Part shown: positions 1,973 through 16,474 of the stretch, piece after piece | Layout of the letters: each line of letters opens with the position of its first letter | Numbering within the stretch: the stretch's first letter is position 1 | Sequence record: MT764208.1 | DNA length: 64,000 nucleotides | Reading direction: 5' to 3' (one strand) | Source: Escherichia phage JEP8 | Position numbers and translations under genes: made by a program | The notes under the pieces: model-generated | Seen by the model: only the letters and a program-made list of their open reading frames with translations | Told to the model about the DNA's origin: nothing | Database searches by the model: none

Positions 1973-4741
1973 ATGGCAGATTTAAGCAGAATCCAATTTA
2001 AACGTACTAGCACTAAAGGCCGTCGACCTGATGCTGGTACGATGAATCCGGGGGAATTGGCAATCAACCTTGCGGATCAATATCTTCTTACTAAAAATGA
2101 TTCCGGTGCTATTATCAATTTAAGTTGTCCTCCGGTTTATGACCGCGATGTTACAATGGCAGGTAAGGTTAAAGGTAATAATTATATCTTAAGTAAAACC
2201 GCTAACTATCTGGAAGATCAGACAGCGCGAGATCTTAACTACTTTGGTGCTTTCCGTACCAATGGTCTTGATGGTTTTCTCGAACTCACGCTAAACGTTC
2301 CTCATTCTTCTGGTGTTCAGCATGGTCGAGGATTTACTTTCCAGTATGGACACACTGGATCGCGTGTAGAAACTTATGGCTATAATAAAGAAGGTCAAAA
2401 AGCATTTAGCTATAAAATGTATCATGAAGGTGATAAACCAACTCCAGGAGAATTGAACGTTTATAGCAAACAAGAAGTTGACCGTATGTTTGTTAAGAAC
2501 GTTAAACTTGCTACATCTCCTAGTGATATCGTTGAAGGCTATTTTAAATTAGCAACTGCAATGATTCCACAAAACGGTCTTAGCGTATTTTTCCGTATTC
2601 ATGGTGGTAACGGATATAACGTTACTGCATACGATCAAGTTGATATTGTAGAAATTGTTATTCGCAGTGGAAATGGTCGCCCTAAAGGTGTTAACGTTAT
2701 TGCATATCGCCGAAATACAAACAAATCATTTGATGTTTTGGCTGTTAATACTTCTGGTGATAACTATGATATCTATGTGAAATATCAGCGTTACACTGAT
2801 AACGTTATTGTTGAATTTGGTAAAAGTGTTGGTGTTAATCTGGTAGTTCATGACGTTCCAGATTTTGTTGCTGATCGTCCTGCTGGCGATAATGTTATTG
2901 GCGGTCGCGCGGTAACTCTTTTTAATACTGAAAATAAACGTGGTGTGTTAAGTTTTGATGATAACACACAAAACAGCTATGACATTGTTCACTTGAGTAA
3001 TGATAGGGGTACAGGACGAAAATATATTCGTAAATTCCGTAGCAACTATAATGAAATGATCTGGCATGAGACGGTTCAAGGTGCTACTTATCGTCTGGCT
3101 ACTGGTGCAACTGATGTTCAGGATATTCTAACCGTTGAATCTGTTAGCTCAATTTCTGGAACTCATAAAGGTAATATTACTTCTGGTCGTATGCTGTTAA
3201 ATGGTGGTAGTAATGTTATTACCTTGCGGCGTCCTGCTGGTCAATCCAACCATATTGCGTTTCAAGATAATCGTACTGGAGATATTACCCGTCAAGGATG
3301 GATCGGTTATGCCAATGCTAATACTAACGTTTTTGAATGGTATAGTGATGTAGGTGGCAGTTCTATTCGTCAACATATCGACGGACAGATCGAATTTCAG
3401 ACAGGTAGCATGAAGCGAGTTTATACTAACGGACAATTCATTTCATTATATGCCGATGGCTTCCGTACTGTATATGGTAACTATGGTTCATGGTGGCGAA
3501 ATGACGGTAGTAACGTTTATCTGATGAGCACAAAATCAGGCGACACTATGGGTCCGTGGAATACCTTTAGGCCGTTCATCTATAGCCTAGCCAATGGTAA
3601 CGTTACATTGGGGGGTAGTGATGCTGGCAACCATTTAATGCGTCTCAATAATGAAAGTAAACGAGTTGAAGTGAACGCAACCACACATCTTGGAAGCAGA
3701 CTGTATTGGGAACGTAACGACGAAGGATCGAAATCTGTATTCTTTGTTAAATCTTGGGGTAATGAAACTCGCGCTCAAGTGTGGGAACTTGCAGACGAAA
3801 CAAGCTATCATCTATATTCTCAGCGTGATTCTAACGGATCGATTCAATTTCGTGTTGCTGGTAGTTTGGAAACTGGAGGCCGCGCCCAGATTAATGGCGA
3901 TTTGGTCGTTACTAATGTTCTTCGTACAAATAACCAAATACAGATTTATAGAGATAACAACAAAGAGATCTGGTTTAAAGATGCTAATGGTACTAACCGT
4001 GGTGTTATCTGGGGAGATGGTGGCGGCAAAATGAGATTGCGTAACTATTCTGGTGGAGAATATGACCATGTGTTCGAAGCTGGTATGATTCGCCTTGAGC
4101 GTGGTTACGCCAATGGACAAGGTGCTGGGTTGATTCGCGGAGAAGTACAAGGTGGAGCATGGTCTGAATGGAGAACTCGCGCTGCTGGCTTATTGGTTGA
4201 CTGTCCAAATGCTCAAACTTCCGCATATAACGTATGGAAAGCGACCAAATGGGGTTTAGACCACATCGCGGCAATGGGTGTTCATGTTCCTAACGGTAAT
4301 GTTGGTAACTCTATTGCGCGTCTGCATGTTGGTGGCACTAACTTTGACTTTAACGCCTCCGGTGATTTCCAGGCAGGTCGTAACGGTAATTTTAACGATG
4401 TTTATATTCGCTCTGATGCTCGCCTTAAAATCAATAAGGAAGAGTATAAAGAGAATGCCACCGATAAAGTTAATCGCTTGACTGTGTACACCTACGATAA
4501 GGTTAAGTCTTTGACGGACCGCACTGTTATCGCTCATGAAGTTGGTATTATTGCTCAGGATCTTGAAAAAGAATTGCCGGAAGCAGTAACAACTTCTAAG
4601 ATCGGCGATCCTGATAAGCCAGAAGAGATCTTAACAATTTCTAACTCTGCTGTCAACGCTCTTTTAATTAAGGCGTTTCAGGAAATGAGCGAAGAATTGA
4701 AAGCCGTTAAAGCTGAACTAGCGGAACTTAAAAAGAATTAA
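1973..4741 (+). CDS. 37: long tail fibre distal subunit gp37 with C-terminal intramolecular chaperone (peptidase S74-type) domain
   Basis: N-terminus MADLSRIQFKRTSTKGRRPDAG..GELAINL resembles T4 gp37 MATLKQIQFKRSK..GELAINL; last 108 aa carry SDARLK..IAQDLEKELPEAV as in endosialidase/T5 fibre chaperone domains. Confidence 0.85.
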   Translation: MADLSRIQFKRTSTKGRRPDAGTMNPGELAINLADQYLLTKNDSGAIINLSCPPVYDRDVTMAGKVKGNNYILSKTANYLEDQTARDLNYFGAFRTNGLDGFLELTLNVPHSSGVQHGRGFTFQYGHTGSRVETYGYNKEGQKAFSYKMYHEGDKPTPGELNVYSKQEVDRMFVKNVKLATSPSDIVEGYFKLATAMIPQNGLSVFFRIHGGNGYNVTAYDQVDIVEIVIRSGNGRPKGVNVIAYRRNTNKSFDVLAVNTSGDNYDIYVKYQRYTDNVIVEFGKSVGVNLVVHDVPDFVADRPAGDNVIGGRAVTLFNTENKRGVLSFDDNTQNSYDIVHLSNDRGTGRKYIRKFRSNYNEMIWHETVQGATYRLATGATDVQDILTVESVSSISGTHKGNITSGRMLLNGGSNVITLRRPAGQSNHIAFQDNRTGDITRQGWIGYANANTNVFEWYSDVGGSSIRQHIDGQIEFQTGSMKRVYTNGQFISLYADGFRTVYGNYGSWWRNDGSNVYLMSTKSGDTMGPWNTFRPFIYSLANGNVTLGGSDAGNHLMRLNNESKRVEVNATTHLGSRLYWERNDEGSKSVFFVKSWGNETRAQVWELADETSYHLYSQRDSNGSIQFRVAGSLETGGRAQINGDLVVTNVLRTNNQIQIYRDNNKEIWFKDANGTNRGVIWGDGGGKMRLRNYSGGEYDHVFEAGMIRLERGYANGQGAGLIRGEVQGGAWSEWRTRAAGLLVDCPNAQTSAYNVWKATKWGLDHIAAMGVHVPNGNVGNSIARLHVGGTNFDFNASGDFQAGRNGNFNDVYIRSDARLKINKEEYKENATDKVNRLTVYTYDKVKSLTDRTVIAHEVGIIAQDLEKELPEAVTTSKIGDPDKPEEILTISNSAVNALLIKAFQEMSEELKAVKAELAELKKN

Positions 4742-4781
4742 GGAAACTCCCAGGGAAGGGAACTACTAAGGAGAAACGGCT

Positions 4782-5021
4782 ATGGTCTATAATATCGTCA
4801 TTGGCGCTTTGTCTAATTTCGGAATGAAATTATTGTCAAAGTTAATTAGTGAAAAGATGCTCACTAAAATTTTCTTCTATTGCGCTCGTCGTCTTGCGGC
4901 TTATACCAATACGCCAATTGATGATCGTTTTGTGGAAGAACTTTATAAGGAGTTTAATAAAGATCAGTCAGAAGATAGTAACGAGCAAGATAAATCTAGT
5001 GATAGTCAACTACCTAAATAA
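4782..5021 (+). CDS. small hypothetical protein (79 aa) between gp37 and holin
   Basis: AAGGAG Shine-Dalgarno 8 nt upstream of ATG; hydrophobic N-terminus, acidic C-terminus; no recognised homolog. Confidence 0.45.
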   Translation: MVYNIVIGALSNFGMKLLSKLISEKMLTKIFFYCARRLAAYTNTPIDDRFVEELYKEFNKDQSEDSNEQDKSSDSQLPK

Positions 5022-5054
5022 GAGTACACTGTCATAGTTATCTTAGGGCATTAT

Positions 5055-5711
5055 ATGCAAGTTTCTGAAAAAGGGAAAGACTTTGCTATCTCAAATGTCC
5101 TGCGCGCTATTTTCACAACTAAAAGCACGGAGTTGCTCGTACTTCGTGTTTTTGCTGCCGTCGTGTTGTCTATATTGGCATTTGTCGTTTATAGTAAAAA
5201 CGAGTTATTTGCGCTTTATAAAGAGACTCGTTATGAGACTTATGCTCACATTCTCCAGGTAGAGAAAGACCGCAATTTTGATAATGCAGCACAGGAGCAG
5301 TTACAGATAGTTCATGTGTCGGCTGATGCCGATTTTTCTGCTGTTTTTAGTTTTCGTCCGAAAAACCTAAACTATTTTGTTGATTTGGTGGCATATGAAG
5401 GAAAGCTACCACATACAATCGATGAAAAGAATTTAGGCGGATTCCCTATCAATAAAACGAGTGAAGAATATCGTAGACATCTTTTAGGTAAATCATATTT
5501 TACCGATAAAGATTTCCAGTATATTCCATCAAGAGAAAAGAAATTAGAGAATATCGATATAGGTTTCATGTATTCTTGTCCTATATTCAATCTCGATAAT
5601 GTCTATTCTGGTAGTATCGCCATTTCATGGAAGAATAAACCGGATATTGACATTGAGAATTTAGATACTCTTTGCAATCAATCTGCCAGAATCCTCGGAA
5701 GGATTAGATAA
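5055..5711 (+). CDS. t: holin t (218 aa)
   Basis: Same length as T4 holin; shared blocks EQLQIVH, SADADFSAV.SFRPKNLNYFVD, AYEGKLP, YSCPxFNLDN, ARILGR. Confidence 0.9.
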   Translation: MQVSEKGKDFAISNVLRAIFTTKSTELLVLRVFAAVVLSILAFVVYSKNELFALYKETRYETYAHILQVEKDRNFDNAAQEQLQIVHVSADADFSAVFSFRPKNLNYFVDLVAYEGKLPHTIDEKNLGGFPINKTSEEYRRHLLGKSYFTDKDFQYIPSREKKLENIDIGFMYSCPIFNLDNVYSGSIAISWKNKPDIDIENLDTLCNQSARILGRIR

Positions 5712-5716
5712 CTTAA

Positions 5717-5748
5717 AGGGGAAGCCTTTCGGCCTCCCCTTCTTTTTA
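5717..5748. terminator. bidirectional rho-independent terminator between convergent genes
   Basis: AGGGGAAGCC-TTTC-GGCCTCCCCT hairpin flanked by A-run and T-run. Confidence 0.55.
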
Positions 5749-5994
5749 TTGGCGCATAGACGCGCCTGAATCACATTTTGACGCTGTATGATGAAAACAG
5801 GTAGCGTACCAGTCATCGGCTTGTTTGTCTTCGTCAGAAAACGCGTAATTTCGTTGTACGCCGTTTTCTACTTTGACCAGTGCAATAGCTGTTTCTGGAA
5901 GATCAATCAATCGGACAAAATCACCATCTTCCCACTCTACACGAGCAATATCATAGCCCATCTCAAAGTATACAATCGCTTGTTCTAATTTCAT
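5746..5994 (-). CDS. hypothetical protein (82 aa)
   Basis: ORF track; first gene of the leftward cluster. Confidence 0.45.
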   Translation of the reverse strand: MKLEQAIVYFEMGYDIARVEWEDGDFVRLIDLPETAIALVKVENGVQRNYAFSDEDKQADDWYATCFHHTASKCDSGASMRQ

Positions 5995-6320
5995 TCTGGA
6001 AACTTCCCGTAAACATTCTCTGCCAACTTACGTGCATCTTTTACAATATCTTTCATGTAATGACTATAATTTTTAGCTAGATCAATGATGCAATCAACAA
6101 AGAAGTAATAGCGTCGCAGTGCGACCAGCTCAACATCTTCAAGATGACCATTTTCTCCAATCGCTGAAATATGTTTAAATTCCTTTCGGATCGCGTCCAT
6201 CGCTACATTAACTTCTTTTATAATATCTTTCGTATTATATGCACCTCGACTAATCAAAATTTTGGTTAGGTCTTCTGCTTTTTCGTGAAAGTTGTCAATT
6301 TCAAACTCGATCATAATCAC
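5991..6320 (-). CDS. hypothetical protein (109 aa), paralog of 6429-6761
   Basis: GAGGTGA Shine-Dalgarno; shares C-terminal ENxxGKF ending with the neighbour. Confidence 0.55.
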   Translation of the reverse strand: MIMIEFEIDNFHEKAEDLTKILISRGAYNTKDIIKEVNVAMDAIRKEFKHISAIGENGHLEDVELVALRRYYFFVDCIIDLAKNYSHYMKDIVKDARKLAENVYGKFPE

Positions 6321-12895: not shown

Positions 12896-13888
12896 TTAGT
12901 AATGGCTAAACCCTTCGGTCACATCTTCAACCACATAGTAACGATGACAGCGCATTTTGGCATTCGCATAATCTTTCGGGATACTTACAACGTGACGCGG
13001 ATCAACTTTACATTTAATGATTCGGCCTCGTCCACCGCCATAGTGCGGAATATAGTGTTTCGCTGCAACGTGGAGGCCATTAGAGCAAGTGCGATCATCA
13101 TCCGGGTCCACGTCTTTACGCTTCATTTTAACCGTGCGACCTGGGCTATTATCAAACGTATGCGTAAAGAAATCTTTATAATCAACATCAACACGTTTCC
13201 ATGCATAGAAACAACCATCTTCCACGATCTCAATGTCGTTGTGCTCTAAGAAGTCAAACAGACGATCTACGGCCTTACGGCTAGGGTTTTTCTTGCACTT
13301 CTCAAAGAAGTTCAGATAGTGCGTATATGGCTTATTCTCTTTAATCGACTCCACAACTCGACGAGTCAGATTATTATCAAGAACAATATTATGATAATAC
13401 ACAATACCATTTTCGATACGGAAAGCGCCGTGATAATATACTTCAACCGCTTTCTTAATGTCAATCAGCGTAATAGCTTTGATGAAATCATTATGTTTAA
13501 TCGCTTCCAGTGCTTCATTAAAGTTAACATGCGACGGATCAGCAGTATAAACAATGTCACCACATGTAATAGTAATAAACTTAGTTGAGGCTATTGCTAC
13601 GATTTTTGAGGAAGTAGTCACGGGCTTTTTTGCGCGTTCACCGCCTTTTCCTTTACTGGTTTTACGGCGTGCTTTACGTTTTTCTAGTGCCTTGCGACCT
13701 TCCGCTACTGCGTCTTTCTGAATCAGTAATACACGGGAGGCAGTACGACGAGATACCCCAAATGCTGCCGCAAGTGCTTCGCGGGTAGTAAACTTACCTT
13801 CGCCCCACTGTTTAGCCAGTTTGATTTGTTTTTCAGAATCCAGGCATTGAACGTTACGGTCAGAGACGGTGATTTTTGCTTTAGTCAT
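12896..13888 (-). CDS. rIIB: rIIB protein
   Basis: C-terminal blocks PSRKAVDRLFDFL..DIEI.EDG.FYAWK, TFDN.PG..VKM, CS.GLHV, HPR.VVSIP.DY.DAKMR, YYVVEDVTE match recalled T4 rIIB. Confidence 0.85.
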   Translation of the reverse strand: MTKAKITVSDRNVQCLDSEKQIKLAKQWGEGKFTTREALAAAFGVSRRTASRVLLIQKDAVAEGRKALEKRKARRKTSKGKGGERAKKPVTTSSKIVAIASTKFITITCGDIVYTADPSHVNFNEALEAIKHNDFIKAITLIDIKKAVEVYYHGAFRIENGIVYYHNIVLDNNLTRRVVESIKENKPYTHYLNFFEKCKKNPSRKAVDRLFDFLEHNDIEIVEDGCFYAWKRVDVDYKDFFTHTFDNSPGRTVKMKRKDVDPDDDRTCSNGLHVAAKHYIPHYGGGRGRIIKCKVDPRHVVSIPKDYANAKMRCHRYYVVEDVTEGFSHY

Positions 13889-13950
13889 AGTATTCATTCC
13901 TCTATTAGTTGGGCGACTATCGCCGCCCGATTCACATCATTATACCAGAA

Positions 13951-14082
13951 TTATTTTGCTTCTACAACCTTGCGGATTGTGCGGTCTGATACATTATAGA
14001 TTCGTGCCAGTTCGCCTTTAGTCAAGCCGCGAGCGTATTGTTTACGGATGGTTTCTTTCTGGATAGCGGTCAGTTTAGTCAT
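13951..14082 (-). CDS. small helix-turn-helix protein (43 aa) between rIIA and rIIB
   Basis: AGAGGTGA Shine-Dalgarno; MTKLTAIQKETIRKQYARGLTKGELARIYNVSDRTIRKVVEAK; below the 60 aa ORF-track cutoff. Confidence 0.45.
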   Translation of the reverse strand: MTKLTAIQKETIRKQYARGLTKGELARIYNVSDRTIRKVVEAK

Positions 14083-14093
14083 AATATCACCTC

Positions 14094-16202
14094 TTAAAAT
14101 TTAACATTCTTAACCAGTTTCATAAAGTCTTGTGCGCGTTTGTCGTTATGCAGAATACGATACCAGTTATCTACAATATCATACAGTAACGGGCTATTCT
14201 CTTTAAACTTCGCACAAACTGCTTTAATTCGTTCGTTTGCTGCCGTGAATTTTTCATCACAGATCTTTTTAGTTTCTTCGTCCATAATCCAACGAGTAAT
14301 AAGGAGTAACTTGGAAACCTCTTTATTATAATGACGACCGTACAGTCTGTCAATAAATTCTGGAATACAGCGTTCTAATTCATCGTCATGAAACAACATA
14401 GTGATCACACCCAGATATTCGCCATACCCCAGATGATTGGTCTTAACCTTCTTAGCCAGACCAGCCAGCTTACCGCGAACAAATTCTAGCGCACATTCCA
14501 ATTGTTCGTCAACGAGATATTTTTGTGTCTCGTTACGGGTAATAATATACTTTGTTACCCCGAAGTAGTCAAGCGCCGTGTGTAATGTATTTTCATTATA
14601 GATCGATTGACGGCTACGGCTTTCGAATGCATCACCCACGCGGAACATGTGCAAGCCTGATAACTCGCGAATCTCTGCCGCTTTCATGTGATGGCTGGTT
14701 TTATGCCAACTGTCACCAATCTTTTCCATGATATACACGTTAGGCAGCTTGGGAGTAGCTTCACGTTGTGTACGCTCGGTCTTCTCCGGCTTAACTGCTT
14801 TAGCACGCAGATCATCGGCCTCTGATACCTTAATCACGGTCATTTCAGAATCATCATAATACTGTTTGATGTACTCGAAAGTCTCCATATGTTTTTCGTT
14901 GCGCTGACGGAACACAAGTACCTTTTTATTGATGCCGTATTCCTGGACCATGCCGTTAAGAGTCAGTGCACGCAGTTTCGGTTTATCGGTATCATCAATA
15001 AGACACGTAATATCTTCTTTATGCATCCATACAAAATGCGTAATGTTGTATTGACTGCTAACGAAAGCAGGGCGCAATTTACTGATTGTGTGACGAGTAC
15101 GATACAGAGTATACACCTGACCTTCTACGTCGTTAGGCGAATCTTTACCCGCATTCACAAACTTATTATAGATTGCTACCGGATCATCCCACTTCCCGAT
15201 CTTACCCATCTTGCTAATAATATTGCGTTGAGTCGATGAATACTCGCTCATAAATTGCGCAAGTTTACGCTCTGTTTTAATGTTGGCGATCTTTTCTTTA
15301 ACCTTTTCCAACATCATTTCATTGATTTCTGCAATACGTTTTTCGATGTTTGCTTTAGTCTCAATTGACAAGTGAACTTCTTCACGCGATGGCATCAGGT
15401 CCAGATCACCCAACTCAAAATTAATGTAAATGGTCTGGTGCTGGCGGTTTACAGCTTCTAACCATGTTCCGCGAACATATTCATACGGGATCGGATACTG
15501 AATCTTACCCATGATTGCATATACTACATAGGAATCGTTATCACGCCCATTGCAAACATAATAATTATCAAAGCTAGGGAAATAATTAATTTCGATTGCA
15601 TTGATATTAGGTTTGTGTTCCCCAAAATGACGCAGTACAAATTGCGCTTCTCGATGCCATGTCTGAATATCTTTTTCTTTCACCGGAATAGTGATTTTCA
15701 GACCATTGTCTTCATAGGTCGGTTCGTCGAAAATCTGCACCATTTTCGGCATAGAGTTTTGCACAAATGCCGTAAAGCCATAAGCGCGACCATTGTAATA
15801 GTTTACGATTGTAAAGGTGTCAGTGTAGCTATAAGCAGATTTCGCACCTAAACCAAAAGATCCGATATAATCATTAGTTTGGTCTTTTGTTGATTCAAAG
15901 TAAACCGTAAACAGTTGTTCTAATTCTTTCTTAGACGGAATACCCGTACCATAATCACGCACAGAGAAATAAGGTTCAATTGCGGTAGGCAAATGAATAT
16001 CAAACGGACGATCTAAGGTTCCGGCTTCTTTGTGAGTGTCGGTAGCATTGCACGAATACTCACGGACGCAAGCACGTTCACAATATTGATAAGTGTTCTT
16101 AGAAAGCACCATAAAAGCCTTGCTACTTGCTTTCAGTGAAAAATCAACCGCACCGCTCAAGTCACTGCCAAATACTTCTTCATTATCAATATGCATTTTC
16201 AT
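14094..16202 (-). CDS. rIIA: rIIA protein (GHKL-type ATPase fold)
   Basis: 702 aa; GSFGLGAKSAY ATP-lid-like motif; synteny with rIIB and gp39. Confidence 0.8.
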   Translation of the reverse strand: MKMHIDNEEVFGSDLSGAVDFSLKASSKAFMVLSKNTYQYCERACVREYSCNATDTHKEAGTLDRPFDIHLPTAIEPYFSVRDYGTGIPSKKELEQLFTVYFESTKDQTNDYIGSFGLGAKSAYSYTDTFTIVNYYNGRAYGFTAFVQNSMPKMVQIFDEPTYEDNGLKITIPVKEKDIQTWHREAQFVLRHFGEHKPNINAIEINYFPSFDNYYVCNGRDNDSYVVYAIMGKIQYPIPYEYVRGTWLEAVNRQHQTIYINFELGDLDLMPSREEVHLSIETKANIEKRIAEINEMMLEKVKEKIANIKTERKLAQFMSEYSSTQRNIISKMGKIGKWDDPVAIYNKFVNAGKDSPNDVEGQVYTLYRTRHTISKLRPAFVSSQYNITHFVWMHKEDITCLIDDTDKPKLRALTLNGMVQEYGINKKVLVFRQRNEKHMETFEYIKQYYDDSEMTVIKVSEADDLRAKAVKPEKTERTQREATPKLPNVYIMEKIGDSWHKTSHHMKAAEIRELSGLHMFRVGDAFESRSRQSIYNENTLHTALDYFGVTKYIITRNETQKYLVDEQLECALEFVRGKLAGLAKKVKTNHLGYGEYLGVITMLFHDDELERCIPEFIDRLYGRHYNKEVSKLLLITRWIMDEETKKICDEKFTAANERIKAVCAKFKENSPLLYDIVDNWYRILHNDKRAQDFMKLVKNVKF

Positions 16203-16216
16203 AATATAATCCTCAC

Positions 16217-16474
16217 TTAATTAAAATCTTCTTTGTCCATCTCTGCGTAGATTACATCCCACGCCCATAAATCAATAAACGCATTATATGTCACGGTGCA
16301 ATCGTTGTCAATCACTTCTTTCGCATATTTCTTGATGTTTTCGTAGGCAACTTGCGGATCAATTTTGTGTTTACGAAGGTGTGCATATTCATACCTCAAA
16401 CATTTCATAAACAGGTCCATCGATTTCTTTTCTCGATGACACTTGGCGATCAGAAAATCAAAACTTCGACTCAT
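16217..16474 (-). CDS. hypothetical protein (85 aa)
   Basis: AAGGAG Shine-Dalgarno. Confidence 0.5.
   Translation of the reverse strand: MSRSFDFLIAKCHREKKSMDLFMKCLRYEYAHLRKHKIDPQVAYENIKKYAKEVIDNDCTVTYNAFIDLWAWDVIYAEMDKEDFN

Follow-up and report, generated by a model that had tools for sequence, protein, structure and literature searches.

A 43-codon open reading frame (ORF) between rIIA and rIIB of Escherichia phage JEP8 (record MT764208.1), here called ORF43, is probably an early gene that arose as a local duplicate of the helix-turn-helix (HTH) module at the N terminus of RIIB, with a product that would bind DNA in trans; we give this reading a probability of roughly 0.6. The analysis covered a 64,000-nt stretch of the record (the window). 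ORF43 lies on its minus strand (Table 1), and the predicted peptide, MTKLTAIQKETIRKQYARGLTKGELARIYNVSDRTIRKVVEAK, is 43 amino acids (aa) long and starts at an ATG (14082..14080).

The frame had been pointed out in a reading made from the sequence alone (the sequence-only reading), whose coordinates and peptide were exact; the strand had been left unstated. The strong ribosome-binding site described there is GAGGTGA, in the minus-strand context TTT-TAA-GAGGTGA-TATT-ATG, where it stands 4 nt from the start codon. Over this region, Krischvirus genomes (RB49, Phi1, GEC-3S, and MIZ4 among them) were 98 to 99.4% identical, and the window is Krischvirus (RB49-like) phage DNA. In T4, rIIA and rIIB are directly adjacent, as the sequence-only reading had said, with a gap of 11 nt; the gap between rIIA and ORF43 in the window is the same.

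Annotations of ORF43 exist in RB49, Phi1, GEC-3S, and some 50 further records, with the label "hypothetical protein" in nearly all Krischvirus relatives. It is named RB49p274/NP_891845.1 in RB49 (where it occupies the same position as in the window), BN201_0276 in GEC-3S, and CDS0114 in MIZ4. The peptide was 98 to 100% identical in 58 Krischvirus records, and phrog_15481 matched it over its full length (1-43 of 43, E 3e-34). The existence of the gene is therefore not new, and ORF43 was missed only by the length filter of the first ORF track. In the literature searched (on the rIIB HTH, the RB49 junction ORF, and r1589), we found neither a description of ORF43 nor a published link between RB49p274/phrog_15481 and the rIIB N-terminal domain.

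Table 1. Features of the rIIA-rIIB region in the window (positions are those of the whole stretch)
Feature	Position	Strand	Remarks
rIIA	14094..16202	minus	702 aa; phrog_612, E 9e-188
rIIA stop codon TAA	14094..14096	minus	11 nt before the ORF43 ATG
Shine-Dalgarno (SD) GAGGTGA of ORF43	14087..14093	minus	4 nt (TATT) before the ATG; abuts the rIIA stop
ORF43 (= RB49p274/phrog_15481)	13951..14082, including TAA stop	minus	Free-standing three-helix HTH of 43 aa, paralogous to the rIIB N-terminal module (by sequence comparison and prediction)
rIIB	12896..13888 (longest ORF to 13897)	minus	330 aa from ATG 13888; phrog_609, E 2e-106
Sigma-70 promoter, TTGACA-17-TATAAT, 12/12	16283..16311	minus	Upstream of rIIA
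Sigma-70 promoter, TTGACA-17-TATAAT, 12/12	14325..14353	minus	Within the 3' end of rIIA, ~240 nt ahead of ORF43
rIIB promoter	13939..13967	minus	Annotated as promoter in GEC-3S
Hairpin GGGCGGC-GATA-GTCGCCC	13911..13928	minus	GC rich; between the rIIB promoter and the rIIB SD

The relationship of ORF43 to rIIB was established with profiles, which were needed because BLASTP of ORF43 against the window's own rIIB returned nothing (E 27), the pair being too short and too diverged. With hhalign, ORF43 matched the rIIB N-terminal HTH at a probability of 98.2% (E 3e-14), and in a MAFFT alignment it fell column for column on the rIIB N-terminal HTH of T4 and of four other genera. Outside Krischvirus, the best tblastn E-values among the matches listed were those to the first ~40 residues of rIIB, with the Jiaodavirus N terminus (52% identical) ahead of Karamvirus, Winklervirus, and others; generic actinophage HTH proteins, again among the matches listed, were weaker and interleaved lower.

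A hidden Markov model (HMM) of the rIIB HTH only was built from 41 non-Krischvirus rIIB N termini, and 142 proteins from two protein searches were rescored on it. Scoring was done per domain, because summed scores inflate the rank of multi-repeat proteins in an exhaustive search. The ORF43 family reached 46 to 48 bits (E about 1e-16), versus 31 to 36 bits for the Krischvirus-type rIIB HTH itself; the modules of the 137 other nearest proteins (1.84 billion representatives searched) scored no higher than 41.7 bits. Within the window, the model matched only ORF43 and the rIIB N terminus. On this profile evidence ORF43 is homologous to the rIIB N-terminal HTH, and the resemblance between the two that the sequence-only reading had remarked on is one of true homology. 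Annotating RB49p274/phrog_15481 as an rIIB-N-type HTH domain protein and free-standing paralogue would be defensible from these sequence comparisons.

The window's rIIB keeps an HTH module of its own, diverged and located at ~aa 14 to 57, which in a full-length alignment sits directly before the core domain, as in T4; ORF43 is thus an extra, upstream copy. Helix 3 of the attached Krischvirus copy reads RRTASRVL, versus DTIRRVL in the canonical form. ORF43 is not covalently joined to the RIIB core, since TAA follows residue 43, and a spacer of ~62 to 63 nt, holding a promoter and a hairpin, runs from its stop to the rIIB start. Fusion of the two products by read-through or frameshifting was considered and rejected, as the relative frame varies among lineages (offsets of 194, 197, 201, and 202 nt). 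As to the rIIB start, the longest ORF is 333 aa from ATG 13897, a codon abutted by the SD GAGGA (13902-13898); ATG 13888, 9 nt downstream of that SD, is where the annotations of relatives begin the gene (330 aa).

An 8-kb stretch held 80 ORFs of at least 30 aa (ORF listing), so that 43 codons alone are within chance and the reality of ORF43 rests on homology and selection. A search of 5.8 billion proteins returned five ORF43 clusters, each of exactly 43 aa (98, 86, 86, 77, and 69% identity), and the gene order rIIA (692 to 715 aa), ORF43, rIIB was found in all of the contigs L008 to L013. Conservation of the frame in relatives, which the sequence-only reading had named as a refuting test, was strong, at exactly 43 codons in the same slot. 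Among the cultured phages in the collection searched with tblastn, no copy of 60 to 95% identity was found; the diverged relatives therefore represent uncultured Krischvirus-like lineages.

In these diverged metagenomic relatives, dN/dS of ORF43 was 0.02 to 0.13 (Nei-Gojobori), with synonymous differences near saturation (pS 0.47 to 0.78). Identity to the window copy was 73 to 86% for ORF43, versus 39 to 42% for rIIA (25 to 35% over its C-terminal 150 aa) and 61 to 64% for rIIB; ORF43 is the most conserved protein of the rII locus in these relatives. Of its 43 residues, 28 do not vary across the lineages; helix 2 and most of the recognition helix, NVSDRTIRKVVE, belong to these, and the recognition helix is constant except for one K-to-R change in L008. 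A purine-rich SD precedes the gene in every lineage (GAGGTGA in L009 to L013; a weaker TGGTGA in L008). Judged by its pattern of substitution, ORF43 is a real gene under strong purifying selection. One 32-aa protein (P0080), with a start identical to that of ORF43 (MTKLTAIQKETIR) before it diverges, probably stems from an assembly in which this gene was truncated or frameshifted.

The fold of ORF43 is confidently predicted to be a three-helix HTH: AlphaFold2, run on the family alignment, placed helices at residues 6-17, 22-28, and 33-41 (pLDDT 90.6). Pfam CENP-B_N (PF04218) matched above its gathering cut-off (26.0 versus 21.2 bits), a match read as superfamily-level likeness only, because many other HTH families also match weakly. 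Sigma70_r4 (PF04545) was second best at 21.1 bits, below its cut-off of 24.1; HTH_28 (20.4 bits) and HTH_7 (PF02796; 18.3 bits versus 23.8) also fell below theirs. The structures nearest to the model in Foldseek were DNA-bound tri-helical HTHs, with IS21 IstA (TM 0.81, rmsd 1.0 Å) and CENP-B (TM 0.79; rmsd range for the two, 1.0 to 1.5 Å) ahead of gamma-delta resolvase (TM 0.73 to 0.75); all of these matches were nonsignificant (E of at least 0.09), as expected for a domain of only 43 residues. No match below E 0.2 emerged when the ORF43 profile was run against PDB sequences. The sequence-only reading had seen a textbook HTH of resolvase/Hin type: the HTH holds, by the CENP-B_N match and the model, and the resolvase/Hin label is imprecise, given the HTH_7 score and the closer fit of IstA and CENP-B. 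A serine-recombinase catalytic domain is absent, ORF43 consisting of the HTH only.

The net charge of ORF43 is +7, versus -4 to +5 in the 41 non-Krischvirus modules embedded in rIIB. From the modeled fold, the S-x-x-T-I-R-K recognition helix, this charge, and the occurrence of such a module in homing endonucleases, we favor DNA binding as the most likely activity, with somewhat better than even confidence. The small DNA-binding regulator inferred in the sequence-only reading would draw indirect support from fold, charge, and family. It is unlikely that ORF43 binds protein instead, be it as a subunit of the RIIA/RIIB complex or a competitor in its assembly, by mimicking sigma-70 region 4 at RNA polymerase, or as a decoy for host sensors that detect RIIB. 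Such a role would accord with the second place of Sigma70_r4 among the Pfam matches, and the fact that ORF43 is better conserved than rIIA and rIIB suggests that its target is conserved too and possibly belongs to the host. Neither a motA orthologue nor a middle-promoter consensus was identifiable in RB49 (PMC1524935), which leaves room for a sigma region-4 mimic in this lineage, and RIIB triggers a CARD-gasdermin defense (PMC10312443), which makes a decoy conceivable. However, neither sigma region 4 nor any anti-sigma factor matches ORF43 at the family level, and the recognition helix (S-x-x-T-I-R-K/R), charge, and nearest structures of ORF43 are typical of HTHs that contact DNA.

Expression signals surround the gene. 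Every diverged relative has, like the window, a sigma-70 match inside rIIA (10 to 12 of 12 positions, 223 to 403 nt upstream of ORF43), and these internal matches are present despite the poor conservation of that part of rIIA. The rIIB promoter has its -35 element, TTGTAG (13967..13962), inside the 3' end of ORF43, followed by a 17-nt spacer and by TGn with the -10 hexamer TATAAT, the two together at 13947..13939. By these motifs, ORF43 appears set up for early expression, both together with rIIA and from a promoter of its own, and rIIB has an additional promoter. The ORF43 initiation region (14076-14093, minus strand; GAGGUGAUAUUAUGACU) lies where T4 has the initiation region of rIIB, which is a known RegA translational-operator site (AAAAUUAUGUAC; PMC3014915). 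AUUAUG is common to the two regions, and RegA action at this site in Krischvirus is a candidate.

A GC-rich hairpin of 7 to 10 bp lies between ORF43 and rIIB in five of five lineages (z-scores -2.4 to -5.7; at about 4631-4655 in L008 and about 2722-2745 in L009). Its structure is conserved and its stem sequences differ among the five. The arms stand on either side of the rIIB promoter's -10 hexamer in L009, L011, and L013, and the whole hairpin is just downstream of that hexamer in the window and L008. It may serve as an RNA stabilizer, as a processing site, or in some other way. Rfam (E ≤ 1) gave no known RNA family at the junction or the hairpin. A terminator scan from ORF43 to rIIB found no intrinsic terminator, and the hairpin was rejected as one because it has no U-tract.

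The inverted repeat that forms this hairpin invites the idea of ORF43 as a repressor or autoregulator dedicated to the rIIB promoter, with a binding site in the repeat itself, which is GC rich and either overlaps the -10 element or comes after it. An HTH gene immediately upstream of the promoter is typical of autoregulators, the repeat is there in all five lineages, and arms flanking the -10 hexamer in three of them make an operator-like layout. We nonetheless consider this improbable, because the arms (GGGCGGC, GCGCCTC, ACGTCCTGA, GCGTCCC, and GCGTCCTA), the loops (3 to 11 nt), and the position relative to the -10 element vary among lineages, while the recognition helix is near-invariant. Pairing that is kept when sequence is not fits an RNA hairpin better than an operator, and ORF43 is without a dimerization domain. 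No DNA target was identified for ORF43, this variable repeat being the sole inverted repeat nearby.

The distribution of the module was surveyed in 80 diverse rIIB loci from IMG/VR, with L008 scanned alongside. A separate upstream HTH copy occurred only in two Krischvirus loci of the 80 (L017 and L018) and in L008. Nearly all loci with a detectable module had a single copy, placed within the rIIB ORF at its N terminus or close to it, and none was detectable in the 15 most distant loci, except L086. When IMG/VR was scanned with the ORF43 alignment, the only genomes retrieved were two of Krischvirus and L016, an unrelated high-GC phage with a generic HTH. In L008, the most diverged relative, rIIB (4685-6064; 459 aa) carries three tandem modules before the core, at about aa 5 to 43, 59 to 97, and 144 to 183; together with ORF43 these make four copies, and copy number at the rII locus thus ranges from 1 to 4. 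Three other arrangements may each be a variant, an rII mutant, or a sequencing error: rIIA and rIIB fused in a single 1,050-aa ORF (L020, 745-3894; genome of 180,500 bp), an rIIB with its HTH part and core in different frames (L069, 3-972), and a 171-aa HTH ORF apart from the rIIB core in a distant phage (L086, 2256-3576).

Tandem arrays of 3 to 9 copies of the ~40-aa module were found in metagenomic proteins, several of which end in an HNH-type motif; these proteins fall among P0006 to P0142 (e.g., P0007, P0008, P0010, and P0012). Such arrays and the three-copy rIIB of L008 indicate that the module readily duplicates; it is evidently used elsewhere as a DNA-binding unit and is prone to duplication. 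Outside the family, the single-domain match of highest identity (56% over 39 aa) is the HTH at the C terminus of P0075, an HNH/NUMOD4 homing endonuclease. With the arrays fused to HNH motifs (P0007 and P0010) and the endonucleases among the PHROG matches of ORF43, it would fit a history in which ORF43 is the surviving HTH of a degraded homing endonuclease once located between rIIA and rIIB, and no duplicate of rIIB. This is very unlikely, because there is no room for it, selection is strong, and the P0075 HTH fits the rIIB-HTH profile far worse (28 versus 46 to 48 bits). No HNH or GIY-YIG remnants lie beside ORF43, which has only the 11 nt to the rIIA stop upstream and the promoter, hairpin, and rIIB downstream; a decaying remnant misfits purifying selection and a fixed length of 43 aa; and the adjacent rIIB carries the same module, in three copies in one relative. 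Where the sequence-only reading spoke of an ORF "inserted" between rIIA and rIIB, the position was right, but the evidence points to local duplication or splitting-off of the rIIB module and not to a foreign insertion.

Short ORFs are common by chance and translational coupling is plausible at this junction, but a chance ORF or duplication leftover, its translation merely coupling rIIA to rIIB and its peptide without a role, is scarcely credible and largely refuted by the selection data (low dN/dS with near-saturated synonymous change in the most conserved protein of the locus), besides which there are the invariant residues, the confident predicted fold, and the promoter and hairpin that separate ORF43 from an rIIB whose relative frame differs among lineages.

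In the reading we prefer, that of a local duplicate acting in trans, the 5' N-terminal HTH module of rIIB would have been duplicated in place. The upstream copy would have kept the ancestral junction of rIIA stop, SD, and ATG, gained a stop codon, and become a separate cistron; a promoter and a hairpin would now part it from rIIB, and the copy attached to rIIB would then have diverged. The ~40 alignable residues of ORF43 and rIIB are too few for a phylogeny to settle the direction and route of this duplication. ORF43 is nearer to the rIIB HTHs of other genera than to the one in the adjacent rIIB, and it could have been acquired by recombination with another T4-like phage. The MTK start and "VSDR" shared with the window's rIIB N terminus were considered as a trace of the duplication boundary and set aside, as the relatives are without the MTK start.

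ORF43 would be transcribed with rIIA as well as from the promoter within the 3' part of rIIA, and its translation would use the strong SD adjoining the rIIA stop. Free and very basic, the module would bind DNA and might do in trans what the rIIB N-terminal domain does in cis in other T4-like phages, as a small transcription factor or a DNA-anchoring factor of the rII system. We propose only tentatively that it acts in trans within the rII system or is a small regulator of the early phase. The free copy is canonical and highly constrained, which suggests that the function of the module needs no covalent link to the RIIB core. Classical T4 work (deletion r1589; Crick et al. 1961, the Crick-Brenner frameshifts) reportedly found the rIIB N-terminal segment dispensable for B function, in agreement with a function independent of linkage to the core.

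Few loci in genetics are as famous as rII. A separately encoded, constrained module would amount to a natural separation-of-function allele of the enigmatic rIIB N-terminal domain, one that could be deleted, tagged, or supplied in trans with the RIIB core left intact. ORF43 is also an example of a real gene of a size that length-filtered ORF tracks miss. Iyer et al. proposed that rIIB is a specific transcription factor (PMC7824862). A bolder version, which we think doubtful, is that the ancestral function of the rIIB N terminus has passed to ORF43 altogether and is exerted on a conserved, possibly host, target, with ORF43 serving as a minimal early transcription factor in a phage lineage without MotA or as a decoy or adaptor that alters the sensing of RII by RexAB or CARD-gasdermin defenses. 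If true, this would provide a genetic handle on the purpose of the rIIB N-terminal segment.

Compared with known systems, ORF43 has the same fold as the HTHs of IstA, CENP-B/pogo, resolvase/Hin, and HNH homing endonucleases; unlike the transposase and recombinase HTH proteins, it has neither a catalytic domain nor a minor-groove arm. The metagenomic tandem-HTH arrays are built of the same type of module (20 to 42 bits per module on the rIIB-HTH profile), whereas ORF43 is a single module with its own expression, and the arrays examined were not linked to rII loci. The closest counterpart is the N-terminal HTH of T4-type RIIB (T4 rIIB aa ~4 to 48), with 42 to 52% identity. Both begin 11 nt after the rIIA stop behind a strong SD, have three helices, and share the recognition helix VS-x-(D/R)-T-I-R-(R/K)-V. 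In contrast to T4-type RIIB, ORF43 ends right after helix 3 with no fusion to the ~230-aa RIIB core, is much more basic, and coexists with a second, diverged copy that has stayed attached to rIIB.
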